NCBI RefSeq assembly: GCF_008065095.1
Contig: NZ_CP042911.1
Coordinates: 990,001 to 1,022,000 of the forward strand
DNA length: 32,000 nucleotides
Direction: 5' to 3'
Source of the DNA: Gemmata obscuriglobus
Lineage (GTDB): Bacteria > Planctomycetota > Planctomycetia > Gemmatales > Gemmataceae
The notes under the pieces were generated by a model. That model worked only from the letters and a program-made list of their open reading frames with translations. It was not told the origin of the DNA and did not search any database. Each line of letters opens with the position of its first letter. Within the stretch, counting starts at the first letter, position 1. The position numbers were made by a program, and so were the translations under genes. Positions 5,038 through 20,897 of the stretch are shown here, piece after piece.

Positions 5038-6060
5038 ATGAAACTCACCCGCCTGCTCGCACTCCTCGCCCTGCTCGCGGCGCCGCCGTTGGCCCGCGCC
5101 GAAGACAAACCGATCGTCCTCGACGGCGGCGCCGGCCCCGGGAAGGGCAAGCACGTCGTCCTCGTCAGCGGGGACCAAGAGTACCGCTCGGAGGAGGCGA
5201 TCCCGCAGCTCGCCAAGATCCTCTCGAAGCACCACGGGTTCAAGTGTACGGTTCTGTTCACGGTGGACCCCAAGGACGGCACCGTCAACCCGAACATCAG
5301 CAACGTTCCGGGCCTCGACGCGCTCAAGACGGCGGACCTGTTCGTCGTCTTCACCCGGTTCCTCAAGCTGCCGGACGACCAGATGCAGCACATCGCCGAT
5401 TACATCGACGCGGGCAAACCGGTGGTCGGGCTGCGGACCTCGACGCACGCGTTCAACGACATCCCGAAAACGAGCCCGTTCGCCCGGTTCAACAACGGCA
5501 GCGGGGCGCCGGGTTGGGAGGGCGGGTTCGGCAAGCGGGTGCTGGGCGAGAAGTGGGTCGCGCACCACGGCGCCCACGGCAAGGAGGGCACCCGCGGGGT
5601 CGTCGTGAAGGGGCAGGAGGGGCACGGCATCCTGAAGGGCGTCGCGCCCGGCAGCGTCTTCGGCACCACGGACGTGTACACCGTCACGCTCCCGCTGCCC
5701 GACTGCACGCCGCTCTTGCTGGGCGAGGTGACCGAGACCCTGAAGCCGGACTCGCCCGCGGTGAAGAACAAGAAGAACGATCCGATGATGCCGGTCGCGT
5801 GGACCAAGGCCTACAAGGCCGCGGGGGACAAGACCGGGCGCGCGTTCACGACCACAATGGGCGCGTCGCAGGACCTGGAGTTCGAGGGGACCCGCCGGCT
5901 GATCGTGAACGGGTGCCTCTGGGCCGCCGGGCTGGAGGACAAGATCCCCGAGAAGGCGAACGTGGACCTCGTGGGCGAGTACAAGCCCACGCCGTTCCGG
6001 TTCAAGGGGACCGCGGAGTGGGTCAAGCAGCCGGTGAAGCCGGCAGACCTAGTGAAGTAG
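5038..6060 (+). CDS. ThuA-domain protein (trehalose-utilisation-like), secreted
   Basis: The ORF is 340 aa with signal peptide MKLTRLLALLALLAAPPLARA. The segment HVVLVSGDQEYRSEEAIPQLAKIL...ADLFVVFTRFLKLPDDQM...DAGKPVVGLRTSTHAF resembles the ThuA class-I glutamine-amidotransferase-like fold family. GC3 is high. Confidence 0.7.
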   Translation: MKLTRLLALLALLAAPPLARAEDKPIVLDGGAGPGKGKHVVLVSGDQEYRSEEAIPQLAKILSKHHGFKCTVLFTVDPKDGTVNPNISNVPGLDALKTADLFVVFTRFLKLPDDQMQHIADYIDAGKPVVGLRTSTHAFNDIPKTSPFARFNNGSGAPGWEGGFGKRVLGEKWVAHHGAHGKEGTRGVVVKGQEGHGILKGVAPGSVFGTTDVYTVTLPLPDCTPLLLGEVTETLKPDSPAVKNKKNDPMMPVAWTKAYKAAGDKTGRAFTTTMGASQDLEFEGTRRLIVNGCLWAAGLEDKIPEKANVDLVGEYKPTPFRFKGTAEWVKQPVKPADLVK

Positions 6061-6075
6061 TTCGGACCGGACCCG

Positions 6076-6114
6076 TTCCGTGCGGCGGGGCGGCCGGCGC
6101 TCCGCCGCACGGAA
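6076..6114 (+). terminator. hairpin downstream of ThuA-like gene 1
   Basis: TTCCGTGCGGCGG (6076-6088) is the exact reverse complement of CCGCCGCACGGAA (6102-6114), with a 13-nt loop. It starts 16 nt after the TAG stop. There is no clear T-tract. Confidence 0.45.
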
Positions 6115-6678
6115 TGGGGTTCCGCGGCGCGCGGTGCCATCAGTCGTGTGATGGACAAGATTCCCCCACCGATCGCCGGCTTCCCCTCCGGACCGCGTCC
6201 GCCATCCGCCCGGACGGCGCCGCAACGAGGCTCCCGTACCGCACGTGGGTGCCCCGCTGGGGCGCAGACGGGACATTCGCTGACGGTCGACTGCTCACGG
6301 GCTACCCGTTCGCTGGGCGGTCGCTACCCACGAATTTTCAGCCCGAACCGCATGTGGAGCGGCGGAACGAGCGGAGCGAGGTCCCGGCGTCGCATCTCTA
6401 TCGCGACGCAAATGCTTGCCAGGACGGCGATTGCAAGAATAAGCCGGCGCGACCGGGAACGCGCGGGCGGTTCTCGCAGCCCGTTCGTGGCGTGCGCACC
6501 GTTGTGCCACAAAAGGGAGCCGCGAGCCCCGCTGCCAGTGGATCCGGGCCGCGCAACCTCTTGCAGTCGCTGCACCTTCCCGCTCCGGCCAGTTCTTCAG
6601 CCCCGGCCCGAAATCCTGTGCTACGGTTCCCCTAGTTCGTTCGCACCCGCTACCCCTCCGCACGACGGGGCACGCCCG

Positions 6679-9600
6679 ATGTCTGTTCGTTTCGAAGCCC
6701 AGGTCGAGCCGATCTCGGGCTACAAACTGCTCGACCGACTCGGCGCCGGCGGGTTCGGCGAGGTGTGGCGCTGCGAGGCCCCTGGCGGCATCTTCAAGGC
6801 CATCAAGATCATCCACGGCGACCTGCGGTCCCGGGACAACGACTTGGTGCGGTACGCCGAGCAGGAACTCAAGTCCCTCAAGCGGGTCCAGCAGGTGCGG
6901 CACCCGTACCTGCTCGCGCTCGACCGGTACGACATCGTCGACGGCCGGCTCATGATCGTGATGGAGCTGGCCGACTGCAACCTGTGGGACCGGTTCCGCG
7001 AGTGCCGCGACCGCGGGCTCCCGGGCATCCCCCGGGACGAGCTGCTCCAGTACATGACCGAGATCGCCGAGGTGCTGGACCTGTTCAACGACCAGTTCCA
7101 GCTCCAGCACCTGGACATCAAGCCGCAGAACCTGTTCCTCCTGTACAACCACGTGAAGGTGGCCGACTTCGGGCAGGTGAAGGACCTCCAGGGGCTGATG
7201 GCGGAGGTGACCGGCGGCATCACCCCGGTGTACGCCGCCCCCGAGACGTTCGACGGGGTCATCACCCGCTACTGCGACCAGTACAGCCTGGCCTGCGTGT
7301 ACCAGGAGCTGTTGACCGGGGTGCGGCCGTTCGACGGCAGCAGCATGAGCCAGTTGCTCATGCAGCACCTGAACCTGCCGCCGAACCTGACCCCGAGCCC
7401 GCCGAACGACCGGCCCGCGCTCGCGCGCGCGCTGTCCAAGAAGCCCGAAGACCGGTGGCCCAACGTCGCCTCGCTGGTCCGCTCGCTCGCCGGCGCGCCG
7501 GCCCCCTCGGGCGTCTTCCCGAAGTACCCCGCGGCGGACAACGACACGCCCACGATGATCGGCCTGCCGCCCAACATCGCTCCGCCCGGCGCGGCGGCGG
7601 CGGCGCTAGTGTCGGTCGCGGACGACACCCCGTCGCGCGGCGGCGAGATCTACGGCCCGGTGTTCACCCCGGCCCCGCCGGAACTCGGCGGCGACGGCCC
7701 GCTCCAGCCCGCGATCGTCATCGGGCTGGGGAACGCCGGGCTGCGGGTGCTCCAGCGGCTCCGGTTCGAGCTGCACGAGCGGTACGGCCCGCCCGCGACC
7801 ACGCCGGCGCTCCGCACGCTGTACATCGACACCGACCCGGACGGCCTGGAGGAGGCCGGGCGCGAGCGGTTCGGCGACCGGCTCGCCGCCCTCGGCAGCG
7901 ACGAGGTGTTCCCCGCCCGGCTGAACCGGGCCGGCCACTACCTCAAGCCGCGGTTCAACGGCCGCTCGCTCACCGAAGGGTGGTTCGACCCGCAGCTCCT
8001 GTACAAGCTCCCCCGCAACCCGCTCACCCTCGGGGTGCGGCTGTTCGGCCGGCTCGCGTTCCTGGACCACTACCGCTTCATCATGGCGAAGGTGCAGGCC
8101 GAGATCGACGCCGCGGTGGCCCCCGACGCGCTGCTGCTCACGGAGGCGCGGACCGGGCTGAAGCGGCGCACCAACCGGCCCCGGGTGTACGTCGTCGCCG
8201 GCACCGGCGGCGGCACCGGCGGCGGCATGTTCCTCGACCTGGCGTACGCGGTGCGCAGCCGGCTGAAGCGCATGGGCTACGACCGCCCGGACGTGCGCGG
8301 GCTGATGGTGGTCCCGCCCGCGGACGCGACGCTCACTTCGCCGCAGGCGCTGGGCAACACCTACGCGGCCCTCACCGAGCTGAACCACTACAGCCGGCCC
8401 GACACGGTGTTCACCGCCCACTACGACGAGCGCAGCGGGTTCGTGAAAGAGACCGACGCGCCGTTCGCGCGGTGCTACCTGCTGCCCGGGCCGGCGGCCG
8501 GCCCCAGTTCCCCGCCGGGCTCGGGCGTCAGCCCGGTGGCGCGGCGCACCCCAACGAACATCCCGAACCCGGGCGCGCGCCCCCGGCCCGGCTCCGGGGC
8601 GGCGAACAAGCCGGGGTCGCGGGTGATCTCGCTCGCGGCCCAGCGCACCCCGGACCCGAGCGCCGCCCTGTCCGCGCTCCGGCCGTTCGGCGACGCGGCC
8701 GAGCGCATCCGGCTGGACCTGTTCGCCCAGGTGGGGCGGGCCGCGGACGAGGCCCGGGCCGCCGAAGAACACGACCGGGACGAGCGGCCCCGCGGGGTGA
8801 CGGTCGGGGCGTTCGGCATCGCGACGTTCGACTGGCCCCGGGCCGAGGTGGTGTCCCGCACCGCCGCGACGGTGGGCCGGGCGCTGCTCAAGCGGTGGGC
8901 CGCCCCGGACCTCAAGCGGGTGCGCGAGCAGATGCCCGGCATCGCGGCCCAGCGGTGGACCCAGCTCGGGCTGGACCCCGACACGATACTCGGGCACCTT
9001 CAGTTCGCCGCCGAACAGGCGGCCGGCGGGAAGATCGACGAGCGGGCGGCCGCGGCCACCGAGCCGCTGGTCCCGCGCGGGTGGCTGAACCGGCTCCCGG
9101 AGCCCACCCAGGTGGGCGTCGCCCTCGACACCATCAACCGGCTGCTGGGACCGCCCGCCGCCGCGCTGAAGCGCCCGCTCACCGCGCTCGAGGAGGCGGT
9201 CGCCAAGGCCGCCGCGGACGCCGCCGCGTCGTTCGCCCTCGACCTCCGCACCCTCGCGCCCGTTCTGGTCGACGACGCCGAGTTCCGGCTGGCGGGCACG
9301 GAGGAGCTGTTCCGCCAGTTCCTCGCGACCACCGACCGGCTGATCGAGCGGTACACGCAACTGGCGGCCGAGCTGGACGCGAAGGCGGTGAGCGGGTTCG
9401 AGTGCCTGTCGCACTACGCCCACTACCAGCGGGGCATGTGGAAGCCGAGCGCCGCGGAGCTGACCGACGCGCTGCGCCTGTACCCGCGGGCGCGGTTCCA
9501 GGCGGTCACCTTCCGGCAGCTCGTCGGCGCCTACCAGACCGTCCGCGACACGCTGAGCGAGCAAGTCGCGGACGTGGCGGTGGCGCGGCAGCGGATGGCG

Positions 9601-10275
9601 GCCGCCGCGGCGAGCGTGCCGGAGGAGCCGCCGGAGCCGCCGGTGTCGCTGCGCCGGCTCATGCCCGCCGGGTGCGTCAGCCTCGGCGACGCCGTGGACC
9701 GGTTCCTGAAGGTGCTCACCGACGCGGACCTGGCGGAGATCGACCGCCGGGTGCAGGCGGTGCTGGAGCCGGAGACCGGCGGGCTGTTCCAGGTGTGCCT
9801 GAACTCGTCGGCGGGCGTCGAAGGGGTCATCGCGGTGGTGTTCGAGGAGACCCGGCTGCACCTCGACCGGCGGCTCGGCGAGGTGGGGCTGGCGGCGATG
9901 TTCGCCGAGCGGTTCCGCACCCCGCAGCAGGCCGAACGCGCGATCGAGCAGGCGTACCAGGAGGCCGAGCCGGCGTGGGTCGGCAACGGCCCGTGGGCCG
10001 GCTCGGAGGTGACCGTCCTCGCCTGCCCGGCCGGGGCGTCGGGCGAGGCCCTGCGCGAGCTGGCCCGGCGCGCGATCCCGGTGGCCGGGCTCCCGATCGC
10101 GGAGAGCCGCGACGACCTGACCATCTACCGCGAGTGGGCGTCGGTGCCGCTGGCGGCGCTGCCGCACCTGGGGCCGGCCGCGGCCGACGCGTACCGGACG
10201 ATCCCGGAAGTCGCCCAGTGCAGCGCGCACGCCCGGCTCGACGTCACCGCCTGGCTCGACGTGGACGCGCCCTGA
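6679..10275 (+). CDS. Ser/Thr protein kinase fused to a tubulin/FtsZ-like GTPase domain and a long helical C-terminal region
   Basis: I prefer ATG 6679 (MSVRFEAQVEPISGYKLLDRLGAGGFGEVW), because the in-frame upstream extension to 6148 has poor GC3 and an Arg/Ser-rich nonsense-like translation. Kinase motifs are GAGGFGEV, FKAIKII, HLDIKPQN, VADFG and VYAAPE. Downstream come IVIGLGNAG (nt 7723-7740) and VVAGTGGGTGGGMF (nt 8197-8226), the latter matching the tubulin signature [SAG]GGTG[SAT]G. The protein is 1198 aa from 6679. Confidence 0.85.
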   Translation: MSVRFEAQVEPISGYKLLDRLGAGGFGEVWRCEAPGGIFKAIKIIHGDLRSRDNDLVRYAEQELKSLKRVQQVRHPYLLALDRYDIVDGRLMIVMELADCNLWDRFRECRDRGLPGIPRDELLQYMTEIAEVLDLFNDQFQLQHLDIKPQNLFLLYNHVKVADFGQVKDLQGLMAEVTGGITPVYAAPETFDGVITRYCDQYSLACVYQELLTGVRPFDGSSMSQLLMQHLNLPPNLTPSPPNDRPALARALSKKPEDRWPNVASLVRSLAGAPAPSGVFPKYPAADNDTPTMIGLPPNIAPPGAAAAALVSVADDTPSRGGEIYGPVFTPAPPELGGDGPLQPAIVIGLGNAGLRVLQRLRFELHERYGPPATTPALRTLYIDTDPDGLEEAGRERFGDRLAALGSDEVFPARLNRAGHYLKPRFNGRSLTEGWFDPQLLYKLPRNPLTLGVRLFGRLAFLDHYRFIMAKVQAEIDAAVAPDALLLTEARTGLKRRTNRPRVYVVAGTGGGTGGGMFLDLAYAVRSRLKRMGYDRPDVRGLMVVPPADATLTSPQALGNTYAALTELNHYSRPDTVFTAHYDERSGFVKETDAPFARCYLLPGPAAGPSSPPGSGVSPVARRTPTNIPNPGARPRPGSGAANKPGSRVISLAAQRTPDPSAALSALRPFGDAAERIRLDLFAQVGRAADEARAAEEHDRDERPRGVTVGAFGIATFDWPRAEVVSRTAATVGRALLKRWAAPDLKRVREQMPGIAAQRWTQLGLDPDTILGHLQFAAEQAAGGKIDERAAAATEPLVPRGWLNRLPEPTQVGVALDTINRLLGPPAAALKRPLTALEEAVAKAAADAAASFALDLRTLAPVLVDDAEFRLAGTEELFRQFLATTDRLIERYTQLAAELDAKAVSGFECLSHYAHYQRGMWKPSAAELTDALRLYPRARFQAVTFRQLVGAYQTVRDTLSEQVADVAVARQRMAAAAASVPEEPPEPPVSLRRLMPAGCVSLGDAVDRFLKVLTDADLAEIDRRVQAVLEPETGGLFQVCLNSSAGVEGVIAVVFEETRLHLDRRLGEVGLAAMFAERFRTPQQAERAIEQAYQEAEPAWVGNGPWAGSEVTVLACPAGASGEALRELARRAIPVAGLPIAESRDDLTIYREWASVPLAALPHLGPAAADAYRTIPEVAQCSAHARLDVTAWLDVDAP

Positions 10276-10284
10276 GTAAAGCCG

Positions 10285-10506
10285 CGAAGAAGATGAAGAG
10301 GATTGGCCGCAAAAAAGCACAAAGGGCACAAAAGAAAACCGAAGAGGAAGACAGAAGAGGATCGGCCACAAAAAAGCACAAAGGGCACAAAAGGGAACCA
10401 AGGACCAAAGCAGAGGAGTGAGTTCAACACATTTCTGCTGTCTTCGTCCTGGTTTTCTTTTGTGCCCTTTGTGCTTTTTTGTGGCCGATCCTCTTCTCTT
10501 CTTCGT
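10285..10506. repeat. 60-bp repeat family: two direct copies plus one inverted copy, A-tract/CACAAA-rich
   Basis: The three copies are copy 1 at 10295-10353, copy 2 at 10354-10413 and copy 3 (inverted) at 10438-10496. The first 40 nt of copy 2 (GAAGAGGATCGGCCACAAAAAAGCACAAAGGGCACAAAAG, 10354-10393) is the exact reverse complement of 10457-10496, and copy 1 matches it at 38/40. The outer flanks CGAAGAAGATGAAGAG (10285-10300) and CTCTTCTCTTCTTCG (10491-10505) are also inverted. The whole block fills the gap between two convergent genes. Confidence 0.85.
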
Positions 10507-15299: not shown

Positions 15300-15415
15300 G
15301 CGATATTTTCCGATGGCCGATTCGATGTTGATTTCATAGCGGCTTTTTGGCATGCTGAAATCCGGGCACTGAGCCCGTGTCGAAATGTCGGAACCGAACG
15401 GAGGATTCGACGGTC

Positions 15416-15958
15416 ATGTGGAACCCACCCCCTGAGCACCCGCTGCGGCGGCTGTTTGCGGGGCTCGCCGAACACGCCTTCTTCTCCCATCTCGGCGTGG
15501 CCGACCCGCCCCTGACTGATTACCTCTCCTCGCTGCTCACCCGGTTCATTCACAACGACGCCGTGTTCCGACTGCGCGGCGACGGCGGTCAACCGCTCAC
15601 CGAGCTGACCGACATGGTGGTCGAAGCCGCGCGCCTCCCGGCGGGCGGGCGCACCCAGTGCGACTACTACCGCCACATCGGGGACTTCGCGCTGTTCTGG
15701 ACCGGGGTGTACCCGGAGGCCGTCGAGCGGATGCGGGCGCGGGCGTGCAAGGACGCGTTCGTGAACTACACCGCCCAGGGCAAGCGCGGGTACATGCTCA
15801 CCAGCCGGCTCGAAGAGGAGCGGCACCACGACGAAGAGGCCGGGCTGTTCCGCCGGCTGAGCGACCAGTTCGAGGTGTGCGCGCTGGGGCTGCGGAAGGT
15901 GCGCGAGGAGTGGGAAGAGATGCGGTCCGCGCCGCCAGGTGGCGGGGTGATCGGGTGA
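15416..15958 (+). CDS. hypothetical protein (180 aa), no domain recognised
   Basis: ATG 15416 is preceded by GGAGGA (15400-15405). GC3 is high. The translation is MWNPPPEHPLRRLFAGLAEHAFFSHLGVADPPLTDYLSSLLTRFIHNDAVFRL...; I recognise no family. Confidence 0.6.
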   Translation: MWNPPPEHPLRRLFAGLAEHAFFSHLGVADPPLTDYLSSLLTRFIHNDAVFRLRGDGGQPLTELTDMVVEAARLPAGGRTQCDYYRHIGDFALFWTGVYPEAVERMRARACKDAFVNYTAQGKRGYMLTSRLEEERHHDEEAGLFRRLSDQFEVCALGLRKVREEWEEMRSAPPGGGVIG

Positions 15959-16285: not shown

Positions 16286-17158
16286 CTACTTCTTCGCCGG
16301 CGCGGGCTTCAGGTACTTGGGCAATTCAGACGGGTCCAGATCGACCTTCGCGCCCTCCTTGGGCACGTCCACGCCCGCGGCCCAGAGGATGCCGTTCACC
16401 AGCAACCGCCGGTAGCCCTCCTCCGCGAAGCTGGCGTGCAGGTGCGCCCCAGTAAACGTGAACGCCCGCCCGCCCTCGGGCCGCTCGTAGGTCCACGCGA
16501 CCACGTCCTGCCCGCCGGTAGGTTTGGCGGTCGTCTTCGGGTTCCACGTCCGCAGGACCGGCGTCACGCCCTTCATGCCGGCAACGAACGTGTTCTTGAA
16601 CAAATAGCCGTCGTCGATCTTGAACGGCTTCACCCCGTTGCACACCGGGTGTTCCGGGAACCTGTCGAACGTCGTGACCCAGTGGGCGCGCTCGCCGGCA
16701 CCCTTCTCCCACGCGCCGCCGCTCCACTCCCGCGCCTTGGCGCCGAAGTCCTTTGGGTAATCGGCCGTCTGGTGGAACTGCACGAGCCCGGCCTTCGCGT
16801 CCATCAGCTTTTGCACCTGCGCGAGCCGCTCGCCCTTGAGCGCCTGGTGCTTCTCGGCCCCGTCGAACAGGAACACGACCGCCTTGGCGTTGTCGAGCGT
16901 GTCGGCCTTCTTGGGCCAGTCGAGCGCGAGCACGGGCGCGACGTTCGGGGTCTGCTTCAGCAGGTCCGCAAGAACCGCGCAGTTCGCGACGTAGTCGTGT
17001 TCGCCGGCCTTGTAGTAGTTCGAGCCGGCGATCAGGACGATCTTCGTCGCTTTCGGGTCGGCGGGCGGCTCGATCGGCGGGGCGTTTTTGGGCGGGTCGG
17101 CGGCCGCCGCGAGTGCGGGCATGATGAGCGCGGCGGCGAGGAGAGTGGCGTAGCGCAT
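16286..17158 (-). CDS. ThuA-domain protein, secreted (paralogue of 5038-6060)
   Basis: I prefer the ATG (CAT at 17156-17158) giving MRYATLLAAALIMPALAAAADPP as a signal peptide. KIVLIAGSNYYKAGEHDYVANCAVLADLL...AKAVVFLFDGAEKH...GLVQFHQTADYP is ThuA-like. GC3 is high. Confidence 0.75.
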   Translation of the reverse strand: MRYATLLAAALIMPALAAAADPPKNAPPIEPPADPKATKIVLIAGSNYYKAGEHDYVANCAVLADLLKQTPNVAPVLALDWPKKADTLDNAKAVVFLFDGAEKHQALKGERLAQVQKLMDAKAGLVQFHQTADYPKDFGAKAREWSGGAWEKGAGERAHWVTTFDRFPEHPVCNGVKPFKIDDGYLFKNTFVAGMKGVTPVLRTWNPKTTAKPTGGQDVVAWTYERPEGGRAFTFTGAHLHASFAEEGYRRLLVNGILWAAGVDVPKEGAKVDLDPSELPKYLKPAPAKK

Positions 17159-17215
17159 GAGTGGGGTTCCGAGAGGTGAAACCGCCCGAGCGTAACACAC
17201 GCACCGCAGAAACGA

Positions 17216-17490
17216 AACCGGGAAGGCGATCGCCTTCCCGGTTCGCGTGTCGGCCGTCGTTTACTTCTGAACCTGTGGTGCGGAGCGCTCACGGCACCGC
17301 CGGCGGCCCCCGCCGGTGGGGCCGTGCAGAACCACGAGCGGCGGGGTTCTTCCAGGCTGCACGGCCCCACCGGCGGGGGCCGCCGATAGCGGTGCTGGAA
17401 CAGCGCTCCCCGCGCGGGGTGTGAAGGCAGAAGCTCGGACGACGCAACATCGTCCTGTCGCAGAGCGACGAGCTAAACCGACGGACCGAC
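17216..17490. ncRNA. structured repeat element, copy B
   Basis: H0 is 17216-17243 (a 28-nt perfect palindrome, AACCGGGAAGGCGATCGCCTTCCCGGTT). TACTTCT lies at 17262-17268 and GCTCACGG at 17287-17294. H2 is 17294-17395, the same 102-nt length as in copy A. H3 is 17437-17455 and H4 is 17457-17469, followed by the GAGCTAAAC tail. Orientation is the same as copy A. Confidence 0.65.
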
Positions 17491-17551
17491 AAGCTTCGTT
17501 CGGAGTTTCTGGTTGTGCGGTGAGCGCACATCTCGCGCAGGGCGGGAGACT

Positions 17552-17749
17552 TTACGCTTTCAGTTCGACCGGGCGGCGCCAGCGGCGGAAGTCACGGATG
17601 CCGGCGTAGATGCCGTAGCTCATCATTCCGAGCACGAACACCGCGACGGCCGCGAAGATGGCGTGCTCGGTCATCCCGTCCGGGTAGTCGCGGCCGTTGA
17701 TCTCGACTTTGAAGAAGGCCTCCGCGTGGTGCGCGAACAGGCTCAGCAT
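17552..17749 (-). CDS. small hypothetical membrane protein (65 aa)
   Basis: The translation MLSLFAHHAEAFFKVEINGRDYPDGMTEHAIFAAVAVFVLGMMSYGIYAGIRDFRRWRRPVELKA has one clear TM helix followed by a basic tail. Nearly every codon ends in G/C, as in the confident genes. It is divergent from the histidine kinase gene. Confidence 0.55.
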   Translation of the reverse strand: MLSLFAHHAEAFFKVEINGRDYPDGMTEHAIFAAVAVFVLGMMSYGIYAGIRDFRRWRRPVELKA

Positions 17750-17940
17750 GGTTCACTCCGTGCGTGGGGTGCGTGGCAACGGGATCAGTTTCGGCGGCCG
17801 GAAGGCCGGTGTCAACGCCGCGGGGGCAATTCGAGCGGCCGGGGCCGAAAAGCTCGCTTCTCATACCGTCCCGGGTGCGCGCCCTTTCAGCCCGCGGGAT
17901 AAAATGGGTGCCGGGCCGTGACAGCCGTTCGAGGGGCGCG

Positions 17941-19404
17941 ATGAACCAGTTCCTGTTCGCCCGGTCCTCGTGGCCGTTCGTGGTGCTCGGCGGGTTGCTC
18001 GCGGCGGCCTGCCTCGCGAGCACTTGGTACATCAACCGGCTCCAGAGCGACCTGGCGCGGGCGGTGCGGCACGACGCGGCGCGGATGGAAGCGGCGGACG
18101 AACTCCAGGTGCAACTGCGGCACCTCCGGTTCCACTCCGTTGTGTGCGCCGCCGACCCGACGGGCGCGCGGCGCGAGGTCGTCCGGCACGACACCGCACA
18201 GGCGGACGCCGCGCTCGCTGCCATCCGCGCCGACATCACCGCGGAGGACGCGGAGCTGCTCGCGGTCATTGAGTCCGACTACGCGACGTACAAGCAGCAG
18301 CTCGGCTCCGGCGGGTCACCGGAGCCGATCACAAACCTGACCGAACTGGTCCGGTGGTCGGACGCGCACCCGATGCGCGGTCTGCTTCAGCCGTGCCGCG
18401 AACTGTCCGACCGGCAGCGCGCCCGAATGGACGCCGGACTGGCCCGGAGCGAGACCGACACCGCGTGGGCCGGGCGGGTGCTGCTGGCGCTCGGCTCCGC
18501 GGGGGCGTTCGGCGGGCTCGTGACCGGGTACGCGACCGCCCGCGGGCAGCGGCGGCGGGCCGCGCAACTGTCGGTCCGGGTGCGTGCGGTTCAGTCACAA
18601 CTCGACCAGGAGGTCGGCGCGCTGTCCGTGGACCCGCCGCCCGCCGACCTGGGCGAACAGTTCGACCGCGTGGTGGAGCGGGTGACGGAGGTGTGCCGGC
18701 GGTTACAGGACCAGGAGCGCGACCTGCTGCGGGCGGAGCAACTGGCCGCGGTGGGGCGGCTCGCGGCCGGCGTCGCTCACGAGGTGCGGAACCCGCTCAC
18801 CGGGATCAAGCTCCTTGTGGAGGGGGCACTGCGGTCCGAGAGCCCGGCGTCACTCACGTCCGAAGACCTGGACCTGATCCGCCAGGAAATCGTGCGCATG
18901 GAGCGCACGGTGCAGGGGCTGCTCGACTTCGCCCGCACCCCGCCGCTGGAGTGCCGACCGCACGACCTCCGCGTGCTGGTGTCCGAGGCGGTGAACCGCG
19001 CCCGCGCCCGGGCGGAGCGCAAGCCCGTGGCCGTGAAGGTCGAACTGGCGGCCGCCCCACTGCCGGTCTCCGCGGACCGCGACCAGATGCTTTCGCTGCT
19101 CACGAATTTGCTATTTAATGCCGTTGACGCGACGCCCACGGGCGGAAACGTTTCGGTGCGCGTCGAAGGCACGCCGGACGGCCCCCCGACCGTAACCGTG
19201 AACGATTCCGGTCCGGGAATCGCTCCGGAGGCGATGGGGAAGCTGTTCACCCCGTTCGCGACCACGAAACCGACCGGGACCGGGCTCGGGCTGACCGTCG
19301 CCCGCCGCATCGCCCGCGACCACGGCGGCACGCTCACCGCCACCAACCGCCCCGAGGGCGGCGCCGCGTTCACACTCACGCTCCCGAGGGGAAGGGGAGG
19401 GTGA
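17941..19404 (+). CDS. sensor histidine kinase (two TM segments, HisKA + HATPase_c)
   Basis: ATG 17941 gives MNQFLFARSSWPFVVLGGLLAAACLASTWYI. A second TM is AWAGRVLLALGSAGAFGGLVTGYA. It carries an H-box (LAAGVAHEVRNPLTGI), N-box (LLTNLLFNAVDA), G1 (NDSGPGI) and G2 (GTGLGLTVAR). Confidence 0.85.
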   Translation: MNQFLFARSSWPFVVLGGLLAAACLASTWYINRLQSDLARAVRHDAARMEAADELQVQLRHLRFHSVVCAADPTGARREVVRHDTAQADAALAAIRADITAEDAELLAVIESDYATYKQQLGSGGSPEPITNLTELVRWSDAHPMRGLLQPCRELSDRQRARMDAGLARSETDTAWAGRVLLALGSAGAFGGLVTGYATARGQRRRAAQLSVRVRAVQSQLDQEVGALSVDPPPADLGEQFDRVVERVTEVCRRLQDQERDLLRAEQLAAVGRLAAGVAHEVRNPLTGIKLLVEGALRSESPASLTSEDLDLIRQEIVRMERTVQGLLDFARTPPLECRPHDLRVLVSEAVNRARARAERKPVAVKVELAAAPLPVSADRDQMLSLLTNLLFNAVDATPTGGNVSVRVEGTPDGPPTVTVNDSGPGIAPEAMGKLFTPFATTKPTGTGLGLTVARRIARDHGGTLTATNRPEGGAAFTLTLPRGRGG

Positions 19405-19463
19405 GAGGCGTATGCGCCCGCGGTTGTACTCCTCACCTCCGCTCCCCACGCGCGCTGAATGCC

Positions 19464-20897
19464 ATGCCAAAGCTCCTGGTCATCGACGACGAGCCGATCA
19501 TCTGCCACTCGTTCCGCCGGGCCTTCTCGGGGCCGGACGTGGAGGTGCTCACCGCCGGGAGTGTTGCGGAGGGGTGGGCGGCCGTCGGACGCGACCGGCC
19601 GGACGTCATCGTTACCGACCTGCAACTCCCCGACGGCACCGGGCTCGATTTGTTCGAGAAGGTGCGCGCCGCCGACCCGCGGCGCCCGGTGGTGGTCATC
19701 ACCGCCTACGGCACGATGGAAACCACCATCGAGGCCATGAAGCGCGGGGCGTTCGATTACCTCACCAAGCCGGTCGACCTAGCGCAGATGAGCGCCGTTT
19801 TGGGGCGGGCGTTCGAGGCCGCGCGGCTGATGCGCGAGCCGGCGGCGCTGCCCACCGACCCGGGCGAGGACCGGATCATCGGGCGCTCGCCGGTGATGCA
19901 GGAGATGTGCAAACTGATCGGCCGCATCGCGCCGCAGGACGCGAGCGTGCTCATTCTGGGCGAGAGCGGCACCGGCAAGGAACTGGTGGCGCGGGCGATC
20001 TACTCGCACTCGAAGCGGGCCGACCGGCCGTTCCTGGCGATCAACTGCGCGGCCATCCCCGACACGCTCGTGGAGAGCGAGCTGTTCGGCCACGAGCAGG
20101 GGGCGTTCACCGGCGCCGAACGGCAGCGGGTCGGGAAGTTCGAGCAGTGCGGCGACGGCACGCTGTTGCTCGACGAGATCGGCGACATGCCGCTGGCGGC
20201 GCAGGCGAAGATGCTGCGCCTGCTCCAGGACCAGACGTTCGAGCGGGTCGGGGGGAGCCAGGCCATCGCGACCCGGGTGCGCGTGCTGGCGGCGACCAAC
20301 CAGCACCCCGAAAAGCTGATCGCCGAGGGGAAGTTCCGGCACGACCTGTACTACCGGCTGAAGGTGGTGACGATCCACGTGCCGGCCCTGCGCGACCGGC
20401 GCGAGGACATCCCGGAACTGGCGCACCACTTCCTGTTCCGCTACGCGCGGGAGGCGAACCGCGACGTCCGCGGGTTCGTGCCGGAGGCGCTCGACCTGCT
20501 CCAGCGGGCCGACTGGCCGGGGAACGTGCGCCAGTTACAGAACTGCGTCCGTGCCGCGGTGTATCAGACCGTCGGGCACGTCCTCGCGCCGGCCGATCTT
20601 CCCGGGTTGGTCGCTCCGGGCGCGACGCCTGCGGGAGTACCAACCGCGGCGGGCGCCGCACCGTTCGACCTCGGTGGCACCATCGAAGCGATGCTCCAGG
20701 ACGGCGCCGGGGACGTTCACGCCCGGGTGACATCGCTGGTCGAGCGCGAGCTGCTGACCCGGGCGCTGCGGCGCACGCACGGGCACCAGGCGCAGGCGAG
20801 CGATCTGCTCGGGATTAACCGCACGACACTTCGCACGAAGCTCCGCGAGTTGGGCATCACGCTCGACAAGGTCGTTGCCGACGCACCCGCGGAATGA
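19464..20897 (+). CDS. sigma-54-dependent response regulator (NtrC family: REC + AAA+ + Fis-type HTH)
   Basis: MPKLLVIDDEPIICHSF...PDVIVTDLQLPDGTG is the receiver domain. The AAA+ domain has GESGTGKE (Walker A), ELFGHEQGAFTGA (the GAFTGA sigma-54 contact loop) and GTLLLDEIGD (Walker B). The C-terminal ASDLLGINRTTLRTKLRELGI is the HTH. Confidence 0.9.
   Translation: MPKLLVIDDEPIICHSFRRAFSGPDVEVLTAGSVAEGWAAVGRDRPDVIVTDLQLPDGTGLDLFEKVRAADPRRPVVVITAYGTMETTIEAMKRGAFDYLTKPVDLAQMSAVLGRAFEAARLMREPAALPTDPGEDRIIGRSPVMQEMCKLIGRIAPQDASVLILGESGTGKELVARAIYSHSKRADRPFLAINCAAIPDTLVESELFGHEQGAFTGAERQRVGKFEQCGDGTLLLDEIGDMPLAAQAKMLRLLQDQTFERVGGSQAIATRVRVLAATNQHPEKLIAEGKFRHDLYYRLKVVTIHVPALRDRREDIPELAHHFLFRYAREANRDVRGFVPEALDLLQRADWPGNVRQLQNCVRAAVYQTVGHVLAPADLPGLVAPGATPAGVPTAAGAAPFDLGGTIEAMLQDGAGDVHARVTSLVERELLTRALRRTHGHQAQASDLLGINRTTLRTKLRELGITLDKVVADAPAE

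Follow-up and report, generated by a model that had tools for sequence, protein, structure and literature searches.

A kinase-fused FtsZ-like 1 protein of Gemmata obscuriglobus with a predicted tubulin/FtsZ fold and a C-terminal helical region without a detectable structural relative

How planctomycetes divide without FtsZ, which is missing from the Planctomycetota (PMC11032199), is an open question, and a conserved protein of the tubulin superfamily with a kinase attached could reasonably be proposed as a component of the process. A protein of this kind appears to be encoded in a stretch of Gemmata obscuriglobus DNA of 32,000 nucleotides (nt; contig NZ_CP042911.1, positions 990,001 to 1,022,000), hereafter the window, in which all coordinates below are counted, except those given with a locus number, and in which the gene and its features lie on the forward (+) strand unless marked otherwise. 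An original prediction, made from the sequence alone, had read the gene at 6679-10275 as a Ser/Thr kinase fused to a tubulin/FtsZ-like GTPase domain, and had seen in the product a candidate cytoskeletal or membrane-remodelling regulator. The locus therefore asks whether the two domains are what they appear to be and belong to one polypeptide, and what such a fusion might do. To the first part the answer is clear, as it is near certain that the protein is the Gemmata orthologue in the kinase-fused planctomycete branch of FtsZ-like 1 (FtsZl1; Pfam Tubulin_2). The membership follows from the Pfam assignment, the match of the predicted fold, marginal alignments to CetZ and FtsZ that are nevertheless correct in register, and the description of the group in the literature. 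It is likewise near certain that the protein is soluble, cytoplasmic and built of four parts; no transmembrane segment was found in its 1198 amino acids (aa).

The coding sequence, stop codon included, is translated without interruption from 6679 to 10275, its codon bias is continuous along the whole length, and the guanine-plus-cytosine (GC) content by codon position is 0.74/0.50/0.98. A homologue search covered approximately 5.8 billion proteins, and most of the 120 best homologues are about 1200 aa long and cover the query to 100%, with few partial sequences among them; nearly all are annotated with both Pkinase and Tubulin_2, and the PF13809 annotation stands on every one of them. More than 100 independent clusters, from isolates as well as metagenomes, encode colinear full-length homologues, which removes the alternative of a kinase gene and an FtsZl1 gene merged by a sequencing or assembly frameshift. 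Only the low-complexity linker that joins the domains could have prompted that idea; no supporting point was found for it, and its probability is negligible. The single intact polypeptide of the original prediction, with both a kinase and a tubulin/FtsZ-like domain assigned by Pfam, is thus borne out. The start codon ATG 6679 is also the right one, since the N-termini of 45 homologues align there with the consensus MxVRIExQAEPIPGYRLLDRLGSGGFGEVW. Upstream, the same frame stays open back to a GTG at 6148, although the longer reading frame is ruled out by those homologue N-termini and by the flat codon-position GC of 6148-6678 (0.64/0.72/0.71). The gene is preceded by a non-coding spacer of 618 nt (6061-6678, +), which is unusually long and within which the open non-coding frame runs on into the gene; an Rfam scan of the whole window, the spacer included, gave no match.

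The N-terminal part of the protein is a Hanks-type Ser/Thr kinase (residues ~13-274; 6715-7500). The Pfam Pkinase profile matches residues 15-228 with an expectation value (E) of 3.3e-26 and 92.7 bits against a cut-off of 31.7, and kinase models of the PknB type in NCBIfam match residues 15-274, the PknB-type and StpK7-type models with E of about 1e-21. The glycine-rich loop GAGGFGEV occupies residues 22-29 (6742-6765), followed by AIK at 41-43, AEQELK with the glutamate of helix alphaC, the catalytic loop HLDIKPQN at 144-151 (7108-7131), DFG at 163-165 and APE at 187-189, so that the complete kinase that had been described is found with every listed motif in its place. Because the catalytic loop reads HLD, the kinase is of the non-RD kind, and of 90 kinase domains from divergent family representatives 84 retain HLD. 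Among 45 homologues the kinase motifs are nearly invariant, and judging by its sequence the kinase is apparently catalytically competent. It is followed by a flexible and poorly conserved tether of about 65 residues (~275-339; 7501-7695), rich in proline and alanine (13 Pro and 11 Ala per 66 residues), for which the consensus of a 46-sequence alignment consists almost entirely of "x".

Behind the tether lies the proximal part of the tubulin/FtsZ-like domain, from S1-T1 through S6 (residues ~340-608; 7696-8502), delimited by Pfam, AlphaFold2, Foldseek and hhalign. A Tubulin_2-type match had been expected around residues 340-600, and Pfam Tubulin_2 (PF13809) is indeed found at residues 346-603 (E 9.2e-34; 117.7 bits, cut-off 27), where it is aligned over positions 1-268 of the 356 in the profile. 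The classical Tubulin/FtsZ profile PF00091 falls short of its cut-off, with 12.6 bits where 33 are required (E 0.16), and this in the T4 region only. The T1-type loop GLGNAG (residues 349-354; 7723-7740), which belongs to the stretch AIVIGLGNAG at residues 345-354 and had been located exactly, aligns to GVGGGG of FtsZ and GVGQCG of CetZ, and its G351 does not vary among 20 relatives with identities as low as 33%. The T4 signature GGGTGGG (residues 510-516; 8206-8226), likewise recognised from the start, aligns to GGTG of CetZ and FtsZ PDB chains; the variants within the family follow GGTG[SG]GM, and a loop of this type is kept in most of the divergent representatives. Both motifs are conserved over the same 20 relatives. 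The distance between them, which had been called typical of the tubulin/FtsZ fold, is in fact not: it amounts to about 160 residues, some 70 more than in FtsZ and tubulin, because of the family-specific inserts that have been described for FtsZl1.

The structure of residues 330-1198 (869 residues) was predicted with AlphaFold2 from a 46-sequence alignment, with a mean predicted local distance difference test score (pLDDT) of 87 and a predicted template modelling score (pTM) of 0.80; in the proximal tubulin-like part it mostly exceeds 90. When the PDB was searched with this model, Foldseek gave 58 matches at E <= 0.001, and the best 50 of them are all tubulin, gamma-tubulin, OdinTubulin, FtsZ or TubZ structures, with E from 5e-5 to 9e-4, 265-399 aligned columns and a probability of 1.00. 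Among the top four matches in the viral library, those with a probability of 1.00 are three, a phage FtsZ, a tubulin and a cell-division protein. The structural comparison proposed for residues 340-1198 therefore points to the expected superfamily. With both a profile and a structural match found, the original prediction withstands the refutation that it had itself named, a lack of any such similarity to the tubulin/FtsZ fold, and the presence of a Rossmann-like nucleotide-binding fold of the tubulin/FtsZ kind is supported by the predicted model. Kinship at the level of sequence is very remote. When the tubulin-like region was compared as a single sequence with PDB chains, nothing relevant came up, and a 20-sequence family profile retrieved only three chains from the PDB sequences, all of them CetZ or FtsZ and with marginal E of 0.3-3.9, the alignments being in register at T1 and throughout S4-T4-H4-S5-H5. 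Alignment to Escherichia coli FtsZ with hhalign covers S1-T1-H1-S2-T2 and pairs an invariant DTD of the family with the NTD of FtsZ in T2. By its sequence, the protein has kept the T1/T2/T4 signature of the nucleotide pocket.

The second half of the domain is less regular. A disordered insertion rich in Pro, Gly and Ser occupies residues ~609-657 (8503-8649) according to the pLDDT and the alignment; it corresponds to model residues 280-328, where the pLDDT falls below 50, and is the only disordered segment of the 330-1198 model. Its length is variable and many relatives do not have it. Since in paralogues and relatives lacking the insertion the match to Tubulin_2 continues as far as profile positions 351-355 of 356, the stretch is a lineage-specific insertion within the tubulin-like domain and not a linker behind it. 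The original prediction was correct that such a stretch exists, while the boundary that it was thought to mark, with the tubulin-like domain ending before it, is contradicted by the profile, the alignment and the model alike. Among close orthologues the short islands RTPxxIPxP and PGSR are kept within the insertion (46-sequence consensus), and Thr-Pro occurs in or at it at residues 624 and 657; these islands and sites could be short linear motifs or sites of phosphorylation. More generally, Ser/Thr-Pro sites are concentrated in the tether and the insertion, the two disordered segments of the protein, and may be regarded as candidate phospho-acceptors.

The distal part of Tubulin_2 resumes after the insertion (residues ~660-741; 8656-8901) with a pair of helices, a strand that closes with WPR and then another helix, which in the numbering of the model are helices 331-353 and 355-370, strand 379-389 and helix 392-412, all of high pLDDT. 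In the family alignment P720 is invariant, and W719 and R721 are nearly so. The order of elements after S6 in the model, helix, helix, loop, one strand and helix, is a partial counterpart of H7-T7-H8-S7-H9; there is one strand only, compared with the four-stranded C-terminal domain of FtsZ, as read from the model.

The remainder of the protein is a family-specific C-terminal region (residues ~742-1198; 8902-10272), predicted to form very long helices in a bundle, followed by a small alpha/beta subdomain. In the AlphaFold2 model the region, of about 450-540 aa, contains helices of 30, 45 and 54 residues and terminal strands, and when residues 659-1198 were modelled separately the pLDDT was 88. 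Foldseek found no match at E <= 0.001 for this separate model in the PDB. The best matches, at E of about 0.01, were helical bundles of the ClyA toxin family, which were rejected as a generic resemblance of long helices because the root-mean-square deviation exceeded 30 Å. The region is therefore without a detectable structural relative. Every one of the 86 full-length representatives of the family has it conserved together with the tubulin-like domain, and the pTM of the 869-residue model implies that the tubulin-like domain and the helical region pack into one unit with a fixed mutual arrangement.

The nearest homologue among the matches listed is protein P0001 of Gemmata algarum JC673, with 99% identity, and across the bacterial family the orthologues are conserved at 50-80% identity. 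Throughout the Gemmataceae the orthologue is well conserved and has been inherited vertically. When the tubulin-like and C-terminal parts alone were searched, 2879 clusters (at 50% identity) were found at E <= 0.001 and 409 at E <= 1e-30. In the best 148 of the 2879 clusters, the proteins with a length of 1000 aa or more, 86 in number, without exception keep the order of kinase, tubulin-like domain and C-terminal region, at 27-55% identity, and the shorter proteins look like fragments from contig ends. Both the sequences and the model are thus consistent with the three parts acting as one functional unit. Several genomes hold more than one copy. In Fimbriiglobus and Zavarzinella two kinase-Tubulin_2 genes stand in tandem (locus L014, 5180-8899 and 8900-12556; locus L016, 5255-8749 and 8867-12433), the paralogues being about 34% identical and colinear over their full length, and in Frigoriglobus a third, divergent copy is found approximately 4 kb off (locus L008, 8924-12598 on the + strand and 16460-20083 on the - strand). 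Because these tandem or nearby copies are deeply diverged and yet colinear, the kinase-Tubulin_2 family holds several ancient paralogous lineages.

The architecture has been on record for some time. Makarova and Koonin described the kinase-fused planctomycete subgroup of FtsZl1 in 2010 (PMC2875224), Santana-Molina et al. noted in 2023 that Tubulin_2 proteins of Planctomycetes carry an N-terminal kinase (PMC9871819), and Odelgard et al. found in 2024 that, among the partner domains exclusive to cytoplasmic Ser/Thr kinases of Planctomycetota, the tubulin-like domain is the commonest (PMC11032199). The name "tubulin-like doman-containing protein" is given to several orthologues by NCBI. The statement in the original prediction that this is not a textbook architecture accordingly holds for textbooks, but the arrangement is already present in the literature, in Pfam and in NCBI protein names, having been known since 2010 and being fairly common in Planctomycetota.

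As to what the fusion might do, the most likely mechanism, to which we would assign a probability of about 0.45, is a GTP-controlled self-association coupled to the tethered non-RD kinase. GTP would bind in the conserved T1/T2/T4 pocket and control how the tubulin-like and helical module associates with itself to form oligomers or filaments, possibly of a geometry unlike that of FtsZ. The assembly would concentrate the tethered kinase domains, which might then phosphorylate one another's disordered Ser/Thr-Pro-rich loops or bound clients, and phosphorylation would in turn feed back to tune the assembly. The fusion would hard-wire, in the manner of a Rosetta stone, a partnership that other lineages make with separate neighbouring kinase and FtsZl1 genes; FtsZl1 operons in bacteria and archaea often contain separate genes for protein kinases (PMC2875224). 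A number of observations weigh against this mechanism. A T7-type catalytic loop could be identified neither in the model nor in the family alignment nor by hhalign, and for this reason a canonical, polymerisation-coupled hydrolysis of GTP is unproven. The family alignment varies most in the loop at the topological position of T7, the sole semi-conserved acidic pair near it lies in GRxADExR, and the hhalign alignment to E. coli FtsZ stops after T2 and so leaves T7 unlocated. A C-terminal domain of the FtsZ/tubulin type is not recognisable (no Pfam match to FtsZ_C), and the target TM-scores of the Foldseek matches are modest, 0.28-0.48. A conserved operon partner, sought in 19 related loci, amounted to no more than a convergent gene for an MscS-like channel, shared within Gemmata only. 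Finally, when the literature was searched for experiments on GTP binding, hydrolysis, assembly or kinase activity, none was found on any FtsZl1/Tubulin_2 member.

The missing T7 favours the main alternative, possible although on balance unlikely, in which the domain is a GTP-binding switch that toggles the attached kinase, at most by dimerisation and with no filament, by a logic like that of Roco/LRRK2. Non-RD kinases escape the usual control by phosphorylation of the activation loop, and since the kinase is non-RD it needs some other control input, which a switch would provide; moreover, no T7-like acidic motif could be made out, and the counterpart of the FtsZ C-terminal domain appears vestigial. 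Makarova and Koonin, who could not align T6-H7 and the later elements of FtsZl1, also considered a non-filament FtsZl1, their alternatives being a novel assembly mechanism or none (PMC2875224). However, the large, conserved and very long helical region resembles an assembly or scaffolding element more than a part of a switch, and the Roco analogy is architectural only, as the GTPase folds are unrelated. To our knowledge, all characterised members of the tubulin/FtsZ superfamily self-assemble. The absence of FtsZ from the phylum (PMC11032199) raises the prospect of a division or budding cytoskeleton that replaces it in the Gemmataceae, as a constriction or bud-neck apparatus with the kinase for a timer. 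The vertical inheritance and good conservation of the orthologue agree with this, and the Gemmata massiliana genome paper lists FtsZl1 among its candidates for division and the cytoskeleton. We nevertheless regard the role as improbable. The deeply diverged paralogues, together with the patchy distribution of FtsZl1, which includes bacteria possessing FtsZ (PMC2875224, PMC9871819), argue against a single core role in division, and no localisation or knockout data were found. The gene neighbourhood holds no division or cell-wall genes either: the fusion gene stands alone, with a ThuA-like gene ending 618 nt upstream and the MscS-like channel gene converging on it downstream, and its farther neighbours are an S9 peptidase, an OEP-family protein, a histidine kinase with an NtrC-type regulator and an RND efflux system. 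Hence the cytoskeletal or membrane-remodelling role that had been proposed draws no support from the neighbourhood and is the same speculation as in 2010.

Elsewhere the operons of FtsZl1 have another flavour, their frequent partners being a vWA protein, a protein kinase, a diverged P-loop GTPase and an OmpA-like protein (PMC2875224). The vWA, kinase and GTPase genes are reminiscent of conflict systems, which suggests an anti-phage device consisting of a nucleotide-dependent sensor and a kinase effector of the abortive-infection type. The PADLOC models mad6, PD-T4-6, MkoA and Stk2 do match the protein, with E down to 1e-35, as does the MAD6 model of NCBIfam (E 2.6e-15), but all these matches are limited to the generic kinase domain (residues ~8-317), with none on the tubulin-like or C-terminal parts, and MAD6 scores 56 bits where the cut-off is 460. 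Membership in the MADS (MAD6), PD-T4-6, Mokosh (MkoA) and Stk2 systems was accordingly rejected, the matches being confined to the kinase and far below the cut-offs. None of the vWA, separate kinase, P-loop GTPase or OmpA-like partners is found beside the gene, no defence genes or mobile elements flank it in the window, and conservation of orthologues across a bacterial family is unlike the sporadic occurrence of defence islands, so that a defensive function is very improbable, more so than the division cytoskeleton. About as improbable, if not slightly more, is a bolder extension of the self-association mechanism into a self-regulating cytoskeleton specific to planctomycetes. Diverged paralogues, such as the tandem pairs of Fimbriiglobus and Zavarzinella, would here co-assemble in the manner of alpha- and beta-tubulin into GTP-dependent heteropolymers through a non-canonical interface without T7, with dynamics driven by their own kinases through phosphorylation of the disordered loops, supplying force or a scaffold for budding and membrane invagination in the FtsZ-less Gemmataceae.

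Beyond the gene itself, across six long loci no flanking gene is conserved save the MscS-like gene within Gemmata. In three loci outside Gemmata a PQQ_2 (BamB-like) beta-propeller gene lies directly 3' of the orthologue (L006, 5964-7349; L008, 12623-13954, with an upstream copy as well at 6862-8685; L009, 4756-6078); there is none beside the gene of the window. The window contains two ThuA-like genes (PF06283) within 11 kb, at 5038-6060 (+) and 16286-17200 (-), and between them the kinase-FtsZl1 gene, the MscS-like channel gene, a gene for the OEP-family outer-membrane protein and a small gene at 15359-15958 without a Pfam match. The intergenic space between the convergent kinase-FtsZl1 and MscS-like genes is occupied by a repeat region (10295-10497) built on an A-rich unit of 59 nt, which is present as a direct tandem pair (10295-10353 and 10354-10412, 83% identical) and in one inverted copy. 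The inverted copy gives rise to a hairpin with arms of 48 nt (10353-10400 and 10450-10497) that are 96% complementary. Within the window the 24-mer core of the repeat is confined to this region; it recurs at the corresponding site of the G. algarum locus (L007) and is absent from the other 18 loci. The repeat and hairpin probably represent a terminator acting in both directions or a small repeat element.

Since the candidate has been recorded since 2010, the window adds no new kind of system. What is added are a predicted structure of high confidence that confirms the fold, the placement of the insertion inside the domain, a C-terminal region without a structural relative, a T7 loop that cannot be identified, and the tandem pairs of paralogues; these sharpen which experiments would show polymerisation of FtsZl1, if any.

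Among the systems with which the protein may be compared, the Roco proteins and LRRK2 likewise combine a guanine-nucleotide-binding domain and a protein kinase in one polypeptide, a combination which suggests that the state of the nucleotide could govern the output of the kinase. The likeness is one of function only, as the Roc-COR fold is Ras-like and not of the tubulin/FtsZ kind, the order of the domains is reversed and there is no homology. With the PknB-type Hanks kinases the protein shares matches to the PknB- and StpK7-type models and all catalytic motifs, although it scores 77 bits against an equivalog cut-off of 450, has neither a transmembrane helix nor PASTA domains, and is a cytoplasmic, non-RD (HLD) kinase fused to FtsZl1. 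From the canonical FtsZ of cell division it differs in the missing FtsZ_C match and in the position of its gene outside any division or cell-wall cluster. FtsZ, CetZ, TubZ and tubulin as a whole have in common with it the predicted nucleotide-binding fold and the motifs T1, T2 (DTD versus NTD) and T4-H5 in register, whereas PF00091 is unmatched, T1 and T4 are set some 70 residues farther apart, no T7, FtsZ_C or Tubulin_C is recognisable, and the fusion adds the kinase and a helical extension of about 450-540 aa without a structural relative. The closest correspondence is with the planctomycete subgroup of FtsZl1. The Gemmata-type orthologues add to it the disordered Pro/Gly/Ser insertion of about 50 residues within the domain, and the vWA, GTPase and OmpA neighbours of many FtsZl1 operons, which are typical but not defining, are absent here; all else is shared, namely the kinase, a T4 of the GGGTG type, the inserts between T1 and T4, the long helical region with an alpha-helical C-terminus, and the phylum itself.

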